Shown: one piece after another, positions 14,457-23,645 of the stretch
Layout of the letters: each line of letters starts with the position of its first letter
Numbering within the stretch: the first letter of the stretch is position 1
NCBI GenBank assembly: GCA_039698055.1
Contig: JBDKTL010000027.1
Location: 64,001-128,000 of the forward strand
DNA length: 64,000 nt
Direction of reading: 5' to 3'
From: Methanoregula sp.
GTDB taxonomy: Archaea > Halobacteriota > Methanomicrobia > Methanomicrobiales > Methanospirillaceae
The notes under the pieces: generated by a model
The model's input: only the letters and a program-made list of their open reading frames with translations
The model's database searches: none
Told to the model about the DNA's origin: nothing
Program-made: the position numbers and the translations under genes

Positions 14457-14569
14457 ACGTGGGGTAATTACCTCCCCCAATGCCCGATTCGATCCACCCG
14501 GGACACGAGACCTGGCATGATCGTTTCTCCGACGTAAGACCCGTACGGATGGCAACCCCTTGAGGAATC

Positions 14570-14581
14570 TCCAGTGGAAAC
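14570..14581 (+). promoter_or_regulatory. ORB-like core TCCAGTGGAAAC (possible Orc1/Cdc6 site)
   Basis: Matches the archaeal origin recognition box core. It is a single copy with no G-string, and no cdc6 lies nearby. Confidence 0.3.
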
Positions 14582-14699
14582 GGTGTTGACGCCCGGCAAA
14601 AATCCTGTTGTAATTCGTTATTTTCCAAAAATAACTGTTTTAATCAGGAAAAAACCGGCCAATGTATCGGGTGTTTTTTTGGCACGTTTTTCCGGTACG

Positions 14700-14773
14700 T
14701 AGATTATGAAGTTGCGGGCGATAAACGGCCTGAAAACGAGGTCTGTGGCCCGCTGTTGATTTCACGTCGGAGA
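14700..14773. repeat. 74-bp direct repeat, copy 2
   Basis: 6 mismatches versus copy 1, offset 317 bp. Confidence 0.95.
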
Positions 14774-15164
14774 TTTTTGGGAATTTGGGGTTTTTCCCTG
14801 GTATTGTTGCTTTTGGATTTTGGATGACGGGAACTGTGCCGGTTTTTTTATGCTGGTGTATCCGGATTTTTCCGGGAATATTTTTTTAATTTTTCTTTTA
14901 CGCTGAAATGGATTTTCCGGAAAATATTGTTCGCATCAAAAAAAATTTTAGGTTTTGTGTTTTTTGGCAATTTTTAAAATATTGTGAACATGTGAAGCGA
15001 TGTTCCCGGAATTTACGATCAGACCCGAACGGGAAAAATTGATGCGATATTTGGTGATACACGTTTTGGGAAAAAATAAAATGGGGATTTTACTGAAAAA
15101 ATTTTTTCACTCAACGCCGCCCTTATGTCCCAAAAAGCCAACTCTCTTTGAAGAGGAAAACGAC

Positions 15165-15485
15165 ATGGACCGCAGGATCAGAAACCTCACATACTTTCTC
15201 GTCATTCTGGCGCTCGTGGGCACCGTGTCCGGTGCCGGGTACGTTGCGGCAGAACAGGCAGGTAGTGCAGTACCGGCAAACCATCCGGTGGCATCAGCAT
15301 TTCACGGCGACAATGGGATAAGCCGTATCGCCGGGGAGCATGGCAGCATCAGTGGTCTGCATATGAAGTGTTATTTCCCGATATGGAGACTGCCCGAGTA
15401 TTATATCTGCATCATGTTCTGCAAGCTTGGTGGGCATGGTGATGCATGTCCTGCCACGTGCGAAGCACGCTACACGGTCTGCTGA
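15165..15485 (+). CDS. Small secreted protein with C-terminal 6-Cys domain
   Basis: GAGG upstream of the ATG and signal-like MDRRIRNLTYFLVILALVGTVSGA. C-x12-C-x3-C-x8-C-x3-C-x6-C at the C-terminus. 9-bp inverted repeat (15485-15493/15522-15530) after the stop. Confidence 0.7.
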   Translation: MDRRIRNLTYFLVILALVGTVSGAGYVAAEQAGSAVPANHPVASAFHGDNGISRIAGEHGSISGLHMKCYFPIWRLPEYYICIMFCKLGGHGDACPATCEARYTVC

Positions 15486-15553
15486 CCTGCACCAGTACTG
15501 GCGGGTGAATTTTCGTTGGGCGGTGCAGGTATTGGGGGGATCACCCCCCCACA

Positions 15554-15562
15554 TTTTATATA
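15554..15562 (+). promoter_or_regulatory. TATA box, probable promoter of the aromatic operon leader
   Basis: TTTTATATA. Expected TSS near 15585, about 240 nt upstream of the first gene. Confidence 0.65.
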
Positions 15563-15627
15563 CCCCCCAAACCCACCAGTAAGTATGCAGGGTGAGTGTT
15601 CAAGCGCTCGTGAGGGTTTTTTTGCCC

Positions 15628-15762
15628 GTGAATGTCGTTATCACCACTAGTTCCACGCCCGCCCATTGCATCAGCATAACCGTTTCTGAAAAATCATTCA
15701 ACCACGGTACCGTCTGGTATCGCGTTTTTGCCTTTTTTGGCTTTTATTTCTGGTATCTGTAA
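15628..15762 (+). CDS. Putative Trp/Tyr/Phe-rich leader peptide of the aromatic amino acid operon (start uncertain: GTG 15592/15610/15628 or TTG 15622)
   Basis: [44 protein letters not shown]. 10 of the last 15 codons are aromatic. GAGGG at 15612-15616. Confidence 0.6.
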
Positions 15763-15763
15763 A

Positions 15764-15806
15764 CCCCCTGGTTCGCTTTTTAGAAATCTGGTGCGAAATC
15801 AGGGGG
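15764..15806 (+). promoter_or_regulatory. GC-rich hairpin between the leader stop and the first gene's SD
   Basis: CCCCCTG-G-TTCGC (15764-15776) pairs with GCGAA-AT-CAGGGGG (15793-15806). GGAG at 15809-15812. Confidence 0.7.
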
Positions 15807-15821
15807 ATGGAGTTGTTTGTT

Positions 15822-16613
15822 ATGAGAGGAAAAGAAATTCGTCTTGAAAGAATCATTAACCGGAATACGAAAAAAACCATCATCGTACCGATGGATCACG
15901 GGGTCACCAACGGCCCCATCCCGGGATTAATCGATCTCGGGCAGGCAGTCGATCTCGTTGCCGATGGCGGGGCAAATGCAGTGATCGGGCATGTCGGGCT
16001 CGCCCTCTACGGCCACCGGCAGAGCGGGCGGGACATCGGCCTGATCCTGCACCTGTCGGCGAGCACGTCCATCAGCCCCGATCCCAACGAGAAAGTACTG
16101 GTGAATTCCGTCACCAATGCCCTCAAGATGGGCGCCGATGCCGTTTCGATGCATGTCAATATCGGGGCAGACTCGGAAGCCCGGATGCTTGCCGACCTTG
16201 GAAGCGTTGCGGTCGAGTGCATGGAGTGGGGGATGCCGCTCCTCGCGATGATGTACCCGCGGGGCAAAAAAATCACCAGAGACAACGATGTCGACCAGGT
16301 AAAACTCGCCGCACGGGTGGCAGCAGAGCTCGGGGCGGACATTGTGAAAACCGTGTACACGGGCGATCCGGAATCCTTCCGCGAAGTGACCCGGGGTTGC
16401 CCGGTGCCCGTGGTGGTAGCCGGAGGTTCAAAGACGGATGACCGCACAACACTTGAATTAATTGAAGGTGCGATGGCAGGCGGTGCAGCCGGTATTTCTA
16501 TTGGCAGGAACGCATTCCAGCACCGGAGCCCGGCAAAGTTTGTCCGTGCGGCGGCATGTATCGTGCATGCGAACAAGAGTGTCGATGAAGCCATGGAACT
16601 GTTGAAGGTGTGA
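15822..16613 (+). CDS. aroA': 2-amino-3,7-dideoxy-D-threo-hept-6-ulosonate synthase (DhnA-type class I aldolase, MJ0400 family)
   Basis: [21 protein letters not shown] and AGGSK. First gene of the aro operon. Confidence 0.88.
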
Positions 16614-16617
16614 ACAA

Positions 16618-17403
16618 ATGATAGGTAAAGAGATCAGGATTGAACGGATCATGGACCGGAACACCGGCAGGTCGGTCATCGTGCCGATGGACCACGGTTT
16701 TTCCATGGGGCAGATCGAGGGCCTGCTGGATATGACCAAAGTCATATCGGACGTGAGCGAAGGCGGGGCAAATGCGATTGTCCTGCACAAGGGAATGGTG
16801 AAACGCGGTCACCGGAGGCACGGCCGGGACATCGGCCTGATCGTCCACCTCTCCGGCAGCACGACAATGAACCCGGACCCCAATGACAAGGTGCTCGTCT
16901 GCACGGTTGAAGAGGCGATTGCGCTTGGCGCCGATGCCGTTTCGATCCACATCAATCTCGGGGCGCCCAACGAGTCAAAGATGCTGGAGTCCGGGGCAAA
17001 GATTGCCCGGGACTGCAACCGGTGGGGGATGCCGCTCCTGATCATGTGCTACCCACGCGGAAAAGGCATTGACCCGGTGTCACCACAGGCAATTGGCCAC
17101 TGTGTCCGTGTGGCCGAGGAACTGGGCGCTGACCTGATCAAGACCAATTACCCGGGGAACACGGAAGCGTTCCACCGGATCACAAAAGCGTGTTCGGTGC
17201 CGGTGTTCATTGCCGGCGGCGAAAAATCCGGCGACCTTGAGACCTTGAAAATCATCCGGGACTCCGTCCATGCCGGGGGTGCCGGTGTCTGCGTGGGACG
17301 AAACGCGTTCCAGCGCGAGGACACAAAGGGATTTGTCCGGGCGCTCTGCCAGGTAGTGCACGGGGACACGGAGCCTGAGGCTGCGCTGGGGCAGGCGAGA
17401 TGA
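16618..17403 (+). CDS. Second DhnA-type class I aldolase (aroA' paralogue or DKFP-forming aldolase)
   Basis: PMDHG, LHKG, LGADLIKTNY and GRNAFQ. Clearly paralogous to the previous gene. Confidence 0.82.
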   Translation: MIGKEIRIERIMDRNTGRSVIVPMDHGFSMGQIEGLLDMTKVISDVSEGGANAIVLHKGMVKRGHRRHGRDIGLIVHLSGSTTMNPDPNDKVLVCTVEEAIALGADAVSIHINLGAPNESKMLESGAKIARDCNRWGMPLLIMCYPRGKGIDPVSPQAIGHCVRVAEELGADLIKTNYPGNTEAFHRITKACSVPVFIAGGEKSGDLETLKIIRDSVHAGGAGVCVGRNAFQREDTKGFVRALCQVVHGDTEPEAALGQAR

Positions 17404-18386
17404 AACTGTTCTGGGTCGATGTCCGGCCGTGGAACAAGGATATCGCGACGAGTGCTCTTGAGAGCGGGGCTGACGCGCTGATGGTCGATCATGCGGAGGA
17501 CGTGAGAAGGCTTGGCCGGATTACCACCATCGCGCCCGATGGCGACCTGAAAACAGGCACCGATGTAGCCGAAGTCACCATCACCGACAAGGCGAGCGAG
17601 AACGAAGCGGCAAAACTCGGGAACACCCGGTTTGTGGTGGTGACCACCCGTGACTGGACCGTTATCCCGCTGGAGAATCTCGTTGCACAGTCCGACCGGA
17701 TAATCGCGAGCGTTAAAAACCTTCACGAAGCAGAAGTCGCCCTGACGGTTCTTGAAAAAGGCGTCCACGGCATCCTGCTCAAAACCACCGACCCTTCGGT
17801 CGTACGATCCGTTGCGGCACGGGTAAAAGCGCAGGGCAGTACGGTAAACCTCGTCCCGTTCACGGTCACCGCAATCCGCCCGGTGGGGATGGGCGACCGG
17901 GTCTGCGTGGATACCTGCTCGATGCTGTCGGATGGCGAGGGGATGCTGATGGGCAATACGTCGTCTGCGATGCTGCTCGTGCATGCCGAAACCCTTGAAA
18001 ACCCGTACGTCGCGCCGCGCCCGTTCCGGGTAAACGCCGGCGCCGTTCATGCGTACATCATGCTGCCGGAGGGAAAAACCGCGTACCTTTCCGACCTGCA
18101 TGTCGGCGGGCAGGTGCTGGTATCCGACGCAGCCGGATCGGCAAAGACGGCGATCATCGGGCGGACAAAGATTGAGCGCCGTCCGCTGCTGCTGGTTGAA
18201 GCAAAAACGGATACCGCAAAGGTCAGCCTGATCCTCCAGAACGCCGAGACCATCCGGCTCGTGAAAGAAGACGGGAGCGCAATCTCGGTGGTAAATCTCG
18301 CGACGGGCGACCGTATCATGGGATGTGTCCTTGAAGGAGGCCGGCATTTTGGCATGGCCGTCAAAGAGACCATTGTTGAGAAGTGA
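17400..18386 (+). CDS. aroB': 3-dehydroquinate synthase II
   Basis: WTVIPLENL, GDRVCVDTC, RPFRVNAG, QNAETIRL and GRHFG motifs. Confidence 0.95.
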   Translation: MKLFWVDVRPWNKDIATSALESGADALMVDHAEDVRRLGRITTIAPDGDLKTGTDVAEVTITDKASENEAAKLGNTRFVVVTTRDWTVIPLENLVAQSDRIIASVKNLHEAEVALTVLEKGVHGILLKTTDPSVVRSVAARVKAQGSTVNLVPFTVTAIRPVGMGDRVCVDTCSMLSDGEGMLMGNTSSAMLLVHAETLENPYVAPRPFRVNAGAVHAYIMLPEGKTAYLSDLHVGGQVLVSDAAGSAKTAIIGRTKIERRPLLLVEAKTDTAKVSLILQNAETIRLVKEDGSAISVVNLATGDRIMGCVLEGGRHFGMAVKETIVEK

Positions 18387-18390
18387 CGCG

Positions 18391-19215
18391 ATGAAAGCAG
18401 GCATTATCGGCGGGACCGGGAAGATGGGAAAACTCTTTACCGGGGTTTTTGAACGGGCAGGATATACCGTGGAAGTCAGCGGCCGGTCGACTGCCCTGAC
18501 AAACGCTGCACTGGCAGAAAGGTGCGATCTGGTGATCGTATCGGTACCCATCCGGGACTCAGTAAGGGTAATCCAGGAAATTGCCCCGCTGCTCTCAAAG
18601 GACCAGGTGCTGTGCGATTTCACCTCGTTAAAGATGGAGCCGGTCGAGGCGATGCTCAAATCAAAGGCACAGGTGATCGGGCTGCACCCGATGTTTGGCC
18701 CCACGGTCAGTTCGCTCTCCCGCCAGACCATCATCGTCTGCCCGGCCCGTGCCGATCCCACCACCCTTGCTTCGCTTATCGCGCTTTTCAGAAACGAAGG
18801 GGCGGAATGCACGATCACGACACCGGAGAAGCACGACCGGATGATGGCGGTGGTGCAGGGTCTGACGCATTTTGTCACGCTCACCATGGCAGAGACCCTG
18901 CGCCGGCTTGATATTGATATTAGAACAACTCAGGCATTCACGAGCCCTGTCTACCAGATGGAAATGTCAGTTGTCGGCCGGCTTCTTTCGCAGGACCCGG
19001 ATCTCTACGCTGATATCCTGCAGGAGAACCCGTTTGTGCCGGAAGTGCTGGACGCGTGCCAGGATGCAGTGCGCAATCTTGCCGATATCGTTACCGCAGG
19101 CGACCCTGACCGGTTCCGGGAATTTTTCCGGGACAACAGCCGGCATTTCGGGGATTACTGCCAACAGGGCCAGGAGACAACGGACGCACTGATCGAATGC
19201 ATGGTGAAGAAATGA
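18391..19215 (+). CDS. tyrA: Prephenate dehydrogenase
   Basis: GGTGKMG Rossmann motif, DFTSLK, HPMFGP and HDRMMAVVQGLTH. Confidence 0.93.
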   Translation: MKAGIIGGTGKMGKLFTGVFERAGYTVEVSGRSTALTNAALAERCDLVIVSVPIRDSVRVIQEIAPLLSKDQVLCDFTSLKMEPVEAMLKSKAQVIGLHPMFGPTVSSLSRQTIIVCPARADPTTLASLIALFRNEGAECTITTPEKHDRMMAVVQGLTHFVTLTMAETLRRLDIDIRTTQAFTSPVYQMEMSVVGRLLSQDPDLYADILQENPFVPEVLDACQDAVRNLADIVTAGDPDRFREFFRDNSRHFGDYCQQGQETTDALIECMVKK

Positions 19216-20003
19216 CGGTCATCACGCTTGGCCCGGAAGGGACGTTCTCGCACGAACTTGCCCTGCGGCTCTCGTATTCTCCGCTGCGGCTGGTGCCCAC
19301 CATCCACGGTGTCTTTGCCGCAGTTGCGCGGGGAGAAGGCGACGGTATTGTCCCGATAGAAAATTCCGAAGCCGGTGGTGTGGGTGCAACTCTTGACGGC
19401 CTTTTGTCCTATCCGCTCTTTATCACCCGCGAGATGTATATGCCCATCCACCACCACCTCGCAGCCCGGGTACGTTTTGAGGAAATAACCGTGATCTATG
19501 CGCACCCGCAGACCCATGAGCAGTGCAGCGAACTGCTCGAGACGTGGGGCATCCCGGTCATCCACACCAGTTCCAATGCCGCAAGTGCAGTTGAGGCAAA
19601 AAACAATCCTGCTGCCGGTGCGATCGTATCCACCTACGCTTCGTCGCTCTATGATCTTCCCGTCCGAAAAAATAATATCGAGAATAACCCGGAAAACGTC
19701 ACCCGGTTCGTTCAGATTTCAAAAACTCCCGGCACGGCCGGCCACGAACAGAAATGCAGTATCCTGATCGATCCCGAAATCGATCGTGCCGGGCTCCTCT
19801 TTGACCTGCTGGGGGTTTTTGCACAGAAACGGATCAACCTGACCCGTATCGAATCCCGGCCGTCACGGCGGGGGATCGGCACCTACGTGTTCTTCCTTGA
19901 CTATGCCGTGTCCGCAGACACTCCCGGGGCACTTGCCCTCCTCAAGCAGATGACCACGGTCAAAGAGCTGGGCTGCTATGCACGAGCCGGGGTGCCCCCA
20001 TGA
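19212..20003 (+). CDS. pheA: Prephenate dehydratase (PDT + ACT)
   Basis: LGPEGTFS, PIENS, NVTRF and NLTRIESRP. Confidence 0.95.
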   Translation: MTVITLGPEGTFSHELALRLSYSPLRLVPTIHGVFAAVARGEGDGIVPIENSEAGGVGATLDGLLSYPLFITREMYMPIHHHLAARVRFEEITVIYAHPQTHEQCSELLETWGIPVIHTSSNAASAVEAKNNPAAGAIVSTYASSLYDLPVRKNNIENNPENVTRFVQISKTPGTAGHEQKCSILIDPEIDRAGLLFDLLGVFAQKRINLTRIESRPSRRGIGTYVFFLDYAVSADTPGALALLKQMTTVKELGCYARAGVPP

Positions 20004-21265
20004 TCAGGACACTCCCGCTCACCCGTAACGTTGATGCGACCGTGCGTGCACCCCCGTCAAAGAGTTACACGCACCGGGCTCTCATCACGGGGGCGCTTGG
20101 CTTCGGCACAACCGTACTTGAGCACCCGCTGGATGCAGACGATACCCGTCTGACCGCACAGGCTCTTGCCGCGCTCGGGGTTCCAATCCGGTGGCAGGAA
20201 GACCGGATCACTATTGCCGGCTGCGACGGGGTTCTTCCCACTTCCGGCACGACAACGCTCAATCTCGATAATTCCGGCACGAGCCTGCGCCTTCTCGCCT
20301 CCCTTGCGCTCCTTGCCTCCCACCCGGTTATTCTCACCGGCAGCGCACGGATGCAGGAGCGCCCGGTCGGCCCGCTTGCCGATGCACTCATGCAGATCGG
20401 GGGGACGGTCACCTTTCCGGGAAAACCGGGTTTTCCTCCCGTTCAGGTCAGCGGACACTTAAACGGGGGGCGGGTCAGCGTAGACGGATCGATGAGCAGC
20501 CAGTACATCTCCTCGCTCCTGCTCGCCGCCCCGTACGCGGACAGGGAAACGGAACTCTTAATCCTTGGTACGCCGGTGTCGCGATCCTATCTTGACATTA
20601 CCATGGATGTGATGCGGACATTTGGCGCCGATGTCAGGCAATCCGGTCCCGACCGGTTCGTGGTCAGCAACCGGGCCCGCTATGCCGGCAGGAACTGTCC
20701 TGTTGAAGGGGATTATTCGTCGGCATCGTATTTTTTTGCCGTCGCGGCAATCTGCGGCGGCAGGATGACGGTCACCAACCTCAGCGCCACATCCGTGCAG
20801 GGGGACCGGCAGTTTCTTACGGCCCTTGAAGCGATGGGATGCCACGTGTCCCGTTCCGGAGATGCCGTGACAGTTGAACGGACCGGCAGCCTTAGAGGAA
20901 TCACCATCTATATGTCGTCTGCCCCCGACACCGTCCAGACACTCTGCATGGTGGCTGCCGGTGCAGAAACCCCCACGACCATCACGGGAATCAGCCACCT
21001 CAGGTTCAAGGAAAGCGACCGGATCGCGGGCACGGCAGAACGCCTCAGGGCACTGGGCGGCGATGTGCGGGTTGAAGATGACAGGATAACCATTTTCCCC
21101 CGTCCGCTGCACGGGGGCACGATTGACCCGGGCAACGATCACCGGACGGCGATGAGCTTTGCGGTGCTGGGGCTGGGCACGGGCGATGTTGCTATCACCC
21201 ATGCAGAATGCGTGAACAAATCGTTCCCTGGATTCTGGGAAACGCTCGACGGGGTCGTACAATGA
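20000..21265 (+). CDS. aroA: EPSP synthase
   Basis: SKSYTHR, NSGTSLR, SSQY, KESDR, DHRTAM and KSFPGF. Confidence 0.96.
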   Translation: MIRTLPLTRNVDATVRAPPSKSYTHRALITGALGFGTTVLEHPLDADDTRLTAQALAALGVPIRWQEDRITIAGCDGVLPTSGTTTLNLDNSGTSLRLLASLALLASHPVILTGSARMQERPVGPLADALMQIGGTVTFPGKPGFPPVQVSGHLNGGRVSVDGSMSSQYISSLLLAAPYADRETELLILGTPVSRSYLDITMDVMRTFGADVRQSGPDRFVVSNRARYAGRNCPVEGDYSSASYFFAVAAICGGRMTVTNLSATSVQGDRQFLTALEAMGCHVSRSGDAVTVERTGSLRGITIYMSSAPDTVQTLCMVAAGAETPTTITGISHLRFKESDRIAGTAERLRALGGDVRVEDDRITIFPRPLHGGTIDPGNDHRTAMSFAVLGLGTGDVAITHAECVNKSFPGFWETLDGVVQ

Positions 21266-22653
21266 AACGGGTTGTGCTGGTGGGTTTTCGCGGGACCGGC
21301 AAGACCGAGGTTGGGAAACGCCTGGCCCGGGAAAAGAACGTACCGTTTTTCGATACCGACGACCTGATCGAGCAAAAAACCGGCCGCTCGATCCCGGATA
21401 TCTTCCATGACAACGGCGAGAAACGGTTCCGGGACATCGAACGCGAGGTTATTGCCAGCCTGCCCCTGACTGGCGCGGTCATCAGCACCGGCGGGGGCGT
21501 GGTTGCCGATCCGATCAACATGGAACGCCTGCGGGCCGACAGCAGCTGTGTCCTGCTCACGGCCGACATCGCGACCATTGAACAGCGCCTCACAAAAAAA
21601 CCGCGCCCGCCGCTGACGGGGCTGCCGCTGCACGAAGAGATCGCCGAGATGATCGATCGCCGCCGCCAGCAGTACCGTGCAGCCGTAGATTTCTGTATTG
21701 ACACCAGTGAAACATCCCCGGATGTTGCCACACAACAGGTTCTTGCGCTGCTGGATAACGGGGTTGCAACTGTTCAGCAGAGAAAAACAGCCTGTGCATT
21801 TTTCAGGACGGGCCGCATACCGGCACCGGCGCTTCAGAAACTCGAAGAGATCCTCACGGGACCACACCGGGACCCGCAGACCCGGATTCTTGGCGTCGCC
21901 GGGTATCCCTGCGCCCACAGCCGGAGCCCGCACCTGTTTAATGCGCTCTTTTCCCGGTACCATCTCAACTACCATTACACGTGGTTTGAGGCCCCCAAAC
22001 CCGACGAGATTATGCAGGTCGCCCGGGCTGTCGATGCAAAAGGGCTCTCGGTCACGATCCCGTTCAAGCAGGACATGATACCGTTGCTTGATGAGGTCGA
22101 CGAGACTGCCGCCCGGCAGATCGGTGCCGTCAACACGGTCGTGTTTGCCTGCGGGACGGCAACCGGCTATAACACGGACTGGCTGGGGATACGAAAACCG
22201 CTGGTCGGCATGAAAGGGTCACGGGCGGTGCTGCTTGGCGCCGGCGGGGGTGCGGCTGCTGCCGCGTATGCCTTAAAGGACCTCGACATGGACGTGATCG
22301 TCCTGAACCGTACGCCGCAAAAAGCACAGGCGCTTGCCGAACGCTTCGGCTGTGCGTGGGCCCCGTGGGATGCATTTGACCGGATCGATCCCGACCTTGT
22401 TGTCAATACGACACCGCTTGGCATGCAGCCGGATACCCGCAGCCCGCTTGCAGAAAAACAGATAACAGGGGAAATGACCATCTTTGATCTGGTATATACG
22501 CCGCCGGTAACCCCGCTCATCGGGATGGCGCGGCAGAAAGGGTGTACAACCATTACGGGCATCGATATGTTTGTCCACCAGGCACGGGAGCAGTTTTACC
22601 TGTTCTTCGGGATTGACGTGCCCGAACAGGTGATACGGGAGCTTGTCGCATGA
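21262..22653 (+). CDS. aroE: Fused bacterial-type shikimate kinase + shikimate dehydrogenase (AroK-AroE)
   Basis: Kinase domain: [29 protein letters not shown]. Dehydrogenase domain: HSRSP, SVTIPFK, GAVNT, NTD, GAGG. Confidence 0.92.
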
Positions 22654-23645
22654 ACACGTTTGGCAGAACATTTCGGATTACAACATTTGGCGAAAGTCAC
22701 GGGGCAGCGGTTGGCGTGGTCATTGACGGGTGTCCTCCCCGGATCGCGTTGTCGGCACAGGATATCCAGCCTTTGCTTGACCGGCGCCGGCCGGGAACCT
22801 CCCCGCTCACCTCGCCGCGCAGGGAGCCGGACCGGGTCGAGATCCTCTCCGGCATATTTGAGGGAAAGACTACCGGGACGCCCATTGCGCTGCTCGTGCA
22901 TAACGAGGATTCGCATTCCGGGGATTACGATGCCTTAAAAGACGTGTTCCGGCCGGGTCATGCAGACTTCACGTACCAGGAAAAATACGGTATCCGGGAC
23001 TATCGCGGCGGCGGGCGCAGTTCCGGCAGGGAGACAGTCGGCCGGGTGGCAGCCGGGGCGGTAGCCCAAAAAATCCTGTCGGCACACGGCATCGCCATCA
23101 CCGGGAAAATTCTCGCGGTGCACGGGAAATCCGGCCAGAATGAGATCGAAGCGGAGATCCGTTCGGCAAAGGAAGCCGGCGATTCTGTTGGTGGAATTGT
23201 TGAGCTTGTCGCTCGTGGGTGTCCTGCGGGGCTTGGCGATCCGGTCTTTGGGAAACTGGACGCACTGATCGCCGGCGCGATGATGGGCATTGGCGCAGTC
23301 AAGGGAGTGGAGATTGGCGACGGGTTTGCCGCAGCCGGGAAATTCGGGAGCGGGAACAACGACCAGATGACTGCTGACCGTTTTTTAAGCAACCATGCCG
23401 GGGGGATCCTTGGCGGCATCTCCAGCGGGCAGGATATTGTCGTGCGGATTGCGGTCAAACCCACGCCGTCCATTCAGAAAATGCAGAAGACCCGGGACTG
23501 CCACGGCAACCAGGTGGATTTGTCAATCCAGGGGCGCCACGATCCCTGTATCGTGCCCCGCATCGTGCCCGTTGCCGAAGCGATGATGGCGCTCGTGCTC
23601 GTGGACTGCTGGCTGGAGCAGGAAAAGTATCTGATCGGCCGGTAG
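22650..23645 (+). CDS. aroC: Chorismate synthase
   Basis: [28 protein letters not shown] and GRHDPC. Confidence 0.97.

Follow-up and report, generated by a model that had tools for sequence, protein, structure and literature searches.

Control of amino-acid operons by leader peptides is a textbook bacterial mechanism, and in the translational attenuation of ermC and cat a ribosome stalled in the leader melts a hairpin that hides the ribosome-binding site of the next gene. Bacterial leader-peptide attenuators use the ribosome to sense charged transfer RNA (tRNA), as set out in the accessible part of PMC3082878. In the pheL-pheA, trpL and hisL systems of Enterobacteria, a short open reading frame (ORF) stands before a biosynthetic operon and carries codons for the end product near its C-terminus. 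Here we analyse a comparable arrangement in an archaeon, Methanoregula sp. (assembly GCA_039698055.1). The window, that is, the whole stretch of DNA analysed, comprises 64,000 nucleotides (nt), positions 64,001 to 128,000 of contig JBDKTL010000027.1. Within it a putative aromatic leader peptide, ORF-B (15610–15762 of the window, 50 codons and TAA), precedes an eight-gene operon for aromatic amino-acid (aro) biosynthesis (15822–23645) that begins with aroA'. All coordinates below are those of the window, and the transcribed features discussed lie on its + strand.

As in the enterobacterial systems, ORF-B is a short ORF before a biosynthetic operon, has the codons for the end products near its C-terminus, and would use the ribosome as the sensor. 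It differs from pheL, trpL and hisL in being archaeal, in addressing three amino acids at once, and in lacking a terminator/antiterminator pair in most lineages. Their ORFs have 14–30 codons against 47–90 in the present leader, which, in addition, has no ribosome-binding site before it. In ermC and cat the stall is caused by an antibiotic together with the nascent peptide, whereas here it would be caused by a lack of charged tRNA. The closest described system, in our assessment, is that of the mycobacterial polycysteine leaderless short ORFs, as presented in the accessible part of bioRxiv 10.1101/834739. There, as is predicted here, the first cistron is leaderless, the cognate codons lie at its 3′ end and the downstream Shine-Dalgarno sequence is occluded by RNA pairing, with a stalled ribosome proposed to free it. 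In the mycobacterial case, however, the codon tract itself pairs with the Shine-Dalgarno sequence, whereas in the present leader a separate C-rich segment after the stop does so. The domain of life and the amino acids also differ, and the present leader has a second, overlapping ORF.

Judging from the comparison of related sequences, we consider it probable that the element acts in cis as a leader peptide of the aromatic amino-acid operon, that the ribosome does the sensing, and that the arrangement is conserved throughout the order Methanomicrobiales. The predicted ORF, its frame, its aromatic end, the hairpin behind it and the pairing partner of that hairpin are shown by comparison; the transcription start, the sensing of charged tRNA and the direction in which the operon would respond are inferred. 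Most likely, the element acts through a ribosome that stalls on the last codons and so unmasks the aroA' ribosome-binding site. We found no report of a leader-peptide attenuator in Archaea in the literature searched, subscription journals and supplements being outside its scope. The available part of a Methanosarcina ribosome-profiling paper mentions upstream ORFs and not attenuation, and the word ‘attenuation' is absent from a 2021 review of archaeal transcription–translation coupling.

Frame and aromatic end of the leader

The sequence-only reading of the window had placed an open frame at 15592–15762 upstream of aroA', ending in 15 codons that include two Trp, three Tyr and five Phe, and had listed GTG 15592, GTG 15610, TTG 15622 and GTG 15628 as in-frame starts, with GAGGG at 15612–15616. 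The frame, its stop and the composition of its end are as described, and all of the listed motifs were found. All four starts are in frame; 15592, however, is not conserved as a start, and the conserved start codon is that at 15610. GAGGG falls within ORF-B. The last 15 codons of ORF-B, 10 of them aromatic, form what we call the aromatic tail (15715–15759). It contains runs of five (15725–15729) and six (15733–15738) T residues (T5 and T6), which are not conserved order-wide.

Taken singly, the leader is only suggestively above chance. In the genome assembly of the window (2.26 Mb, 49 contigs), at least 8 Phe, Trp or Tyr residues within 12, in any stop-to-stop frame, occur in five upstream regions, that of the leader included; Phe-rich stop-to-stop frames are common because spacers and intergenic DNA are T-rich. 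In a stricter test, which was chosen after the ORF had been seen, aromatic residues were counted in the last 15 codons of frames of at least 30 codons ending 20–235 nt before a gene. ORF-B scored 10 and ranked first of 855 upstream regions; the runner-up score of 7 occurred in two regions, and three of the 855 thus had at least 7. We regard the comparison with relatives, presented below, as the decisive evidence.

No leader family was found by Rfam within 15585–15822: a search of 14500–16500 at E up to 10 returned nine matches, all far below the gathering score, and among the Rfam matches one to the L31 leader at 14685 was judged to be due to chance. A tRNA scan of the spacer found none, and neither Pfam nor NCBIfam matched ORF-B or the overlapping ORF-A (described below). 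The 50-residue peptide had no candidate relative at 27–88 residues in a protein collection of 5.8 billion clusters, which suggests that gene callers may miss it.

Within the genus, BLASTN with the leader DNA matched 20 of 36 other genomes at E≤1e-13, plus two with weaker matches; from five other families, 24 genomes were searched in the same way and none matched. Scanning species-representative genomes for the pattern brought up 71 stretches, of which 67 are archaeal leaders and 4 are chance matches in bacteria. The two search sets merged (90 entries) yielded 70 non-redundant Methanoregula leaders. An aroA' start follows in all 70. The frame from the codon at 15610 is intact and aromatic-tailed in 63 of them; the seven broken frames (L008, L012, L067, L069, L070, L075 and L089) are all among 18 records with ‘MFD' in their titles, with none among the other 52. 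The breaks fall within or close to T-runs and so probably reflect faulty assembly, not pseudogenes. The ‘MFD' records presumably derive from long reads and would thus be liable to homopolymer errors.

Counted from the start codon, the last TGGTAY lies a whole number of codons away in 57 of the 64 leaders bearing this motif, across 18 different lengths. ORF-B itself is 47–90 codons long, and the long versions carry stop-free, in-frame insertions in their middle, all ending in an aromatic tail. Of 69 leaders, 41 have ATG at 15610 and 28 have GTG, an alternation of the kind typical of a start codon. In 62 intact leaders both other sense frames always contain at least two stops and two antisense frames always at least one, and the codon-aligned antisense frame is stop-free in just 23. 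We considered and rejected an antisense gene: long minus-strand frames vary in phase, are mostly the reverse of aroA', and none is consistently open. By these counts, the + strand leader frame is the only one of the six that is maintained. Over the N-terminal ~20 codons (the first 60 nt are almost invariant) conservation is at the level of nucleotides, with no synonymous excess in any frame.

By NCBI taxonomy Methanoregula belongs to Methanomicrobiales. With the aroA' protein as query, we screened another 120 genomes of the order and examined the upstream DNA of 109 loci (one, L129, had no usable start); the comparison set beyond Methanoregula comprised 98 loci from 26 genera and 6 families. 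In all 98 a frame ends 20–235 nt before aroA' with 4–11 aromatic residues in its last 15 codons (median 7), and all of the 27 Methanomicrobiales genera examined, from 6 families, have a recognisable leader. Across 10 other families of the phylum, 20 genomes showed no leader-like frame; the best two frames in them had 5 and 6 aromatic residues and ended 134 and 328 nt upstream. An N-terminal motif, V-x-V-F-S/L-P-V-x-x-F-I, and a nearly invariant 5′ sequence are common to most leaders of the order; this core motif is present in Methanoculleus, Methanocalculus, Methanofollis, Methanospirillum, Methanosphaerula and Methanocorpusculaceae. Among 69 matches to the core motif, 61 stand before an aroA'-type N-terminus (within 520 nt), 3 are ended by the end of the locus and 5 are bacterial chance matches; none of the archaeal matches among the 69 precedes any gene other than aroA'.

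The sequence and length of the tail are free to vary across the 27 genera, while its composition is kept. Phe, Tyr and Trp account for 31.9, 28.0 and 6.9% of the tail in Methanoregula and 25.0, 17.6 and 3.5% order-wide, compared with 4.2, 3.0 and 1.0% of the proteome; together they make up 46–67% of the last 15 codons (67% in Methanoregula) versus 8% of the proteome. With genera weighted equally, the aromatic frequency is 0.4–0.8 over the last five codons and ~0.1 by codon −22. An aromatic residue lies within the last three codons in 154 of 158 unique tails, and Trp within the last 15 in 110 of 158. The conserved upstream ORF enriched in Trp, Tyr and Phe, which the earlier reading had proposed to look for in the aro leaders of relatives, was thus found, and it is the frame and the aromatic codons that are kept and not the T-runs. 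The frame upkeep, the composition of the tail and the exclusive linkage to aroA' strongly back the central claim of that reading, namely a translated leader enriched in codons for the three end products of the operon.

The hairpin after the leader stop

A predicted hairpin, P4 (15764–15806), has its 5′ arm starting 1 nt past the leader stop and, as its 3′ arm, a G-run beside the aroA' ribosome-binding site. A Shine-Dalgarno-like GGAG (15809–15812) is located 3 nt after P4 and 9 nt before the aroA' ATG. P4 is present in the minimum-energy fold of all 63 Methanoregula leaders folded, with the 5′ arm starting 1–5 nt after the stop; the mean z is −2.2, and z is below −2 in 38 of the 63. In a 21-sequence alignment, two-sided changes were seen at 4 of 11 pairs of P4 and at 3 of 4 scored pairs of P3 (15706–15721), a 6-base-pair (bp) hairpin with a 4-nt loop inside ORF-B. 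The observed covariation was reached by none of 500 shuffles on four measures and by 11 of 500 on a fifth, that of further pair types. When the pairing partners were slid against each other, pairing fell from 97% to 40–55%. Covariation of P3 overrides the first Trp codon, which is an Ala codon in several species. For a further hairpin, P1 (15592–15611), we saw one-sided changes only and thus no support from covariation; the 5′ helices are invariant among relatives and are therefore uninformative in this respect.

Order-wide, 93 of 98 loci have their first stem beginning between −3 and +6 nt relative to the stop, and of the 84 loci with a recognisable Shine-Dalgarno motif, 57 have at least 60% of that motif paired. 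A duplex between the first 16 nt past the stop and the last 20 nt ahead of the aroA' ATG has a mean energy of −12.8 kcal/mol, compared with −8.1 for shuffled or reversed sequences and −8.5 for a segment inside the ORF, and the native duplex beats the shuffled mean in 18 of 23 genera. As predicted from these folds, a hairpin occluding the downstream ribosome-binding site is a property of most of the order; in the window the stem ends just short of GGAG. The near-stop stems and terminal aromatic codons fit the geometry of a stalled ribosome, with a footprint of the size we take it to have, covering the 5′ arm of the hairpin.

The mechanism we favour would run as follows. The transcript would begin at or next to ATG 15585, and ribosomes would translate the ~50-codon frame 15610–15762, the last ~15 codons of which are mostly for Phe, Tyr and Trp. 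The second arm of P4 would lie on or beside the aroA' ribosome-binding site. With charged aromatic tRNAs plentiful, ribosomes would finish and leave, the hairpin would close and aroA' would be poorly translated; the untranslated RNA may additionally be terminated or degraded. If any of the three tRNAs were scarce, a ribosome would dwell on the last codons with its footprint over the 5′ arm. The hairpin, its 5′ arm covered, would then stay open and aroA' would be translated.

Several observations weigh against this mechanism. A hairpin near the stop is frequent in shuffled sequences: 51 of 79 loci would be expected to have one order-wide, where 66 do, and 31 of 59 in Methanoregula, where all 59 do. 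The duplex between the post-stop segment and the ribosome-binding region is no stronger than in shuffles in five genera (f6g6, f4g24, f5g11, f5g28 and f1g17), f1g20 being a further lineage of this kind, and the gap to the chimera control is modest (−17.1 vs −13.7 kcal/mol). In the window itself occlusion would be indirect, because GGAG sits outside P4. Each terminating ribosome would also open the hairpin briefly, and the gain from stalling is thus a kinetic argument. The nucleotide-level conservation of the N-terminal part is not accounted for by the favoured model. Finally, we did not find a comparable leader before the trp operon of the same genome.

Competing accounts of the leader

The sequence-only reading had suggested that the Phe-codon tract doubles as a U-rich, terminator-like signal and that ribosome position gates termination. 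Outside Methanoregula, only 46 of 98 leaders have a T-run of at least five in the tail, with 1 of 25 in family f5, so a double role of the Phe codons is not a conserved feature, and we dropped it. Of the gating idea, the ribosome-sensed leader stands, whereas the output appears to be the hairpin formed with the ribosome-binding region and not the U-tract: the conserved hairpin, which abuts the stop and engages this region before aroA', speaks for translational attenuation and not for the classical transcriptional kind. We consider it unlikely that the main output is transcriptional, that is, that ribosome position decides whether RNA polymerase stops at a hairpin and U-run before aroA'. Besides the scarcity of tail T-runs, no T-run follows P4 in the window, and no intrinsic terminator (hairpin with an immediate U-run) was thus seen there between the leader stop and aroA'. 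The aromatic codons lie at or after the T-runs, so that, by geometry, a ribosome should not be able to stall on them while the polymerase is still at the runs. We found no conserved pair of mutually exclusive structures, and consensus folding gave no antiterminator, in a 65-sequence MAFFT alignment that was poor and misaligned the hairpin. Such termination would nevertheless have material to work on, as a simple scan of the + strand flags as terminator-like both P1, followed by a run of seven T residues, and the covarying P3, followed by T5 and then T6. In the genera f4g10 and f6g12 the leader stop is followed by a 10-bp stem and, ~10 nt later and at least 50 nt before the gene, by T5, which is likewise terminator-like. 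Archaeal termination does use U-tracts, with aCPSF1/FttA. A termination component is thus possible in Methanoregula, and possible as a second layer in some lineages.

The remaining accounts leave out amino-acid sensing. Constitutive translational coupling, in which the upstream ORF merely opens the aroA' ribosome-binding site, would suit the hairpin abutting the stop and the ribosome-binding site just as termination–reinitiation would; it leaves unexplained both why composition and not sequence is conserved, at 46–67% Phe, Tyr and Trp over 158 different tails, and why the leader is restricted to aro operons, and we judge it very unlikely. A small functional protein, such as a hydrophobic or membrane peptide that is merely co-transcribed, could explain the N-terminal motif shared across the order. 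That motif, however, is conserved at the nucleotide level without a synonymous excess in any frame, the tail varies freely in sequence and length, and the family and protein-collection searches described above found no relative; this account strikes us as very improbable. We give as little credence to the idea that the open frame is incidental and that a protein or a ligand binds the region as RNA or DNA. Such an element would not be expected to keep the frame over 18 lengths and long insertions, to leave a single frame open or to produce the positional gradient of aromatic codons, even though the almost invariant first 60 nt show no frame-specific substitution pattern and 18-nt tandem repeat units and palindromes near the promoter are present. 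A bound element of this kind could also coexist with the leader peptide.

Promoter, operon and the overlapping ORF-A

A TATA box had been noted at 15554–15562, and its sequence, TTTTATATA, is found there, with matches at the same place in relatives. A match with at most two mismatches is located upstream of a conserved ATG (15585 in the window) in 64 of 67 Methanoregula leaders, the best match lies 30–32 nt 5′ of this ATG in 66 of 67, and order-wide the ATG follows a TATA-like match (at most two mismatches) by 29–36 nt in 85 of 99 loci. The usual archaeal spacing from the TATA box puts the transcription start at or next to such an ATG. The 5′ end of the transcript is therefore probably at or next to ATG 15585, as judged from the TATA spacing, which would leave no room for a ribosome-binding site before ORF-A. 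A scan for sigma-70 promoters found none, as expected in an archaeon. Parts of the region are present as contigs in four metatranscriptome runs of one study. One 202-nt contig covers 15665–15864, that is, the leader end, P4 and the aroA' start; being single and fragmentary, and with DNA carry-over possible, it lends weak support to co-transcription of the leader and aroA'.

ORF-A (15585–15650, 21 codons and TAG) starts with an ATG, presumably leaderless, at the predicted 5′ end of the transcript and overlaps ORF-B in the −1 register. In its register a run of seven U residues (15617–15623), which follows P1, reads YUU-UUY and is a candidate +1 slip site. The 5′ sequence ATGCAGG is invariant in the first 23 aligned leaders and has two variants among 62. 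ORF-A is open for 20–22 codons in all 69 Methanoregula leaders analysed. Outside the genus it mostly has 15 codons, with the consensus M-(R/Q/C)-G-(E/G)-C-F-F-A-G-(E/D)-(C/R)-F-Y-x-x, and its stop lies exactly 10 codons past the Phe-Phe pair in 46 of 58 unique sequences. These stops are TAG in 29 cases, TAA in 19 and TGA in 10, and the codon that overlaps them in the long frame specifies any of 11 amino acids. The position is thus kept with three stop codons and 11 overlapping amino acids, which suggests that the stop in the ORF-A frame is itself selected.

We sorted the loci by an automated table of 99 rows, the window included. In 70 rows the aromatic frame is the +1 frame of ORF-A, with YTT-TTY at ORF-A codons 6–7 or 12–13; another 23 rows lack YTT-TTY, and their 5′ ATG shares the frame of the aromatic tail. 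Six rows fell in neither class (L142, L147, L169, L176 and L189, where the pick of ATG or tail was unreliable, and L148, where the tail is unclear). Within the classes, L180 and L166 had been mis-picked, and the ATG of L157 is the long frame's own start. A motif-based pass and inspection by eye put all doubtful rows into the same two classes, except L148. The single-ORF lineages are scattered (f1g17, f1g20, f2g7, f2g22, f4g23, and f4g10 with f6g12). In f4g23 and f2g22 the region is one base shorter and its homology can be traced. Their single ORF matches the predicted trans-frame product at 4–9 of the first 14 residues, compared with 1–2 for an ORF-B started at GUG; the match follows in part trivially from the conserved DNA and the missing base.

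The overlapping units have some further peculiarities. The 5′ leader (15590–15645) consists of 18-nt tandem units that start with GTGA(A/G)(T/G)G, which are also seen in L117. Two units are the rule in most families; three are found in Methanoregula and in some members of a sister genus, which makes both ORFs six codons longer. The genera f4g10 (L137, L167, L171, L174 and L176) and f6g12 (L146, L147, L178–L185 and L191), which belong to different families, share a derived leader with a single ORF ending in F-W-F-R-Q, followed by the 10-bp hairpin and T5 mentioned above. This suggests transfer or a misplaced genus.

It is possible, though we hold it only tentatively from these alignments, that a +1 frameshift joins ORF-A to ORF-B. 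The alternative would be independent initiation at GUG +5/+8, or at 15610 in Methanoregula, with its 41 ATG codons among 69 leaders. If the frameshift took place, the two overlapping ORFs on a leaderless messenger RNA might form a two-stage sensor, in which a starvation-driven +1 slip is followed by a stall in the tail, a scheme we put forward with considerable doubt. Ribosomes would start at the 5′-terminal AUG 15585 and read the 15–21-codon ORF-A with its Phe-Phe pair. With Phe-tRNA plentiful, reading would stay in frame and stop early, far from the hairpin. At a ‘hungry' second Phe codon, the P-site tRNA would slip by +1 on YUU-UUY. Only the slipped ribosomes would enter the long frame and reach the aromatic tail, where a second stall would open the aroA' ribosome-binding site.

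In prfB-type +1 sites (CUU-U) a P-site YUU re-pairs one base on, a zero-frame ORF ends soon after, and one-base-shorter relatives have a continuous ORF, all of which the leader would match. Unlike in those sites, the slow A-site codon of the leader is a Phe codon, which would be slow only under starvation, and the trans-frame product is a prediction. The leader would likewise resemble the hungry-codon frameshifting treated in a 2021 review (PMC8211752), which describes slippage at ‘hungry' codons when charged tRNA is limiting. That review reports a single frameshift case (−1) in cellular archaea and cites the same kind of comparative signature for it.

The eight genes after the leader had been read as aro genes, and NCBIfam confirmed this. 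They encode, in order, two aroA' products, dehydroquinate (DHQ) synthase II, prephenate dehydrogenase, prephenate dehydratase, 5-enolpyruvylshikimate-3-phosphate (EPSP) synthase, a shikimate kinase–dehydrogenase fusion and chorismate synthase, which ends at 23645. The aroA' pair (15822–16613 and 16618–17403) are 2-amino-3,7-dideoxy-D-threo-hept-6-ulosonate (ADH) synthases. The proposed aroA' start at 15822 is sound, its ATG being conserved; ATG 15807 was rejected as a start, as it is not conserved. Archaeal shikimate kinase is usually of the GHMP type. The enzyme here is, by NCBIfam, of the AroK/AroL type and is joined to shikimate dehydrogenase in one 481-residue ORF (21208–22653). Upstream of the promoter, a 161-codon ORF (15000–15485) has no family match and contains a signal-peptide-like stretch after an internal Met; an RNA contig covers 15300–15477.

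Directly 5′ of the TATA box lies a G/C-rich inverted repeat (15533–15551), which reads G6-ATCA-C7. Most Methanoregula relatives have TGCTA-N-TAGCA there instead (L002–L021, ~10–30 nt before the TATA box). Palindromes of the TGCTA...TAGCA type are also found near the aroA' promoters of other families and of outgroup genomes that lack the leader element (L150, L154, L157, L296, L301 and L303). We regard these promoter-side palindromes, as judged by their sequence, as a candidate operator for a DNA-binding aro regulator.

Elsewhere in the genome, the trpEGDC..BA operon (contig 22, 6929–7449, minus strand) has a 5′ spacer of ~520 nt that contains no Trp-rich frame and has a strong 12-bp inverted repeat, GAATCCGGCCGG ... 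CCGGCCGGATTC, ~30 nt before trpE. On contig 30 (L102, 1295–1336) a Thr-rich frame of 13 codons, 9 of them for Thr (M-T-T-I-T-T-T-T-S-R-T-T-T), overlaps by ATGA with a 481-residue ORF, which has no NCBIfam match and is not a threonine gene. On contig 7, a frame in which 7 of 12 residues are His lies upstream of 17944–18519, an ORF of 191 residues with no family match.

The leader raises questions of leaderless initiation on regulatory ORFs and of starvation-driven frameshifting, and it could be tested in cultured carriers of the core motif, namely Methanoculleus, Methanocalculus and Methanosphaerula. The two-stage sensor, if true, would give Archaea their first described attenuator that senses amino acids as well as their first described regulatory +1 frameshift. 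If the reading of ORF-B as a ribosome-sensed leader peptide is right, archaea, too, would use the translating ribosome as a metabolite sensor, and would do so across a whole order of methanogens.

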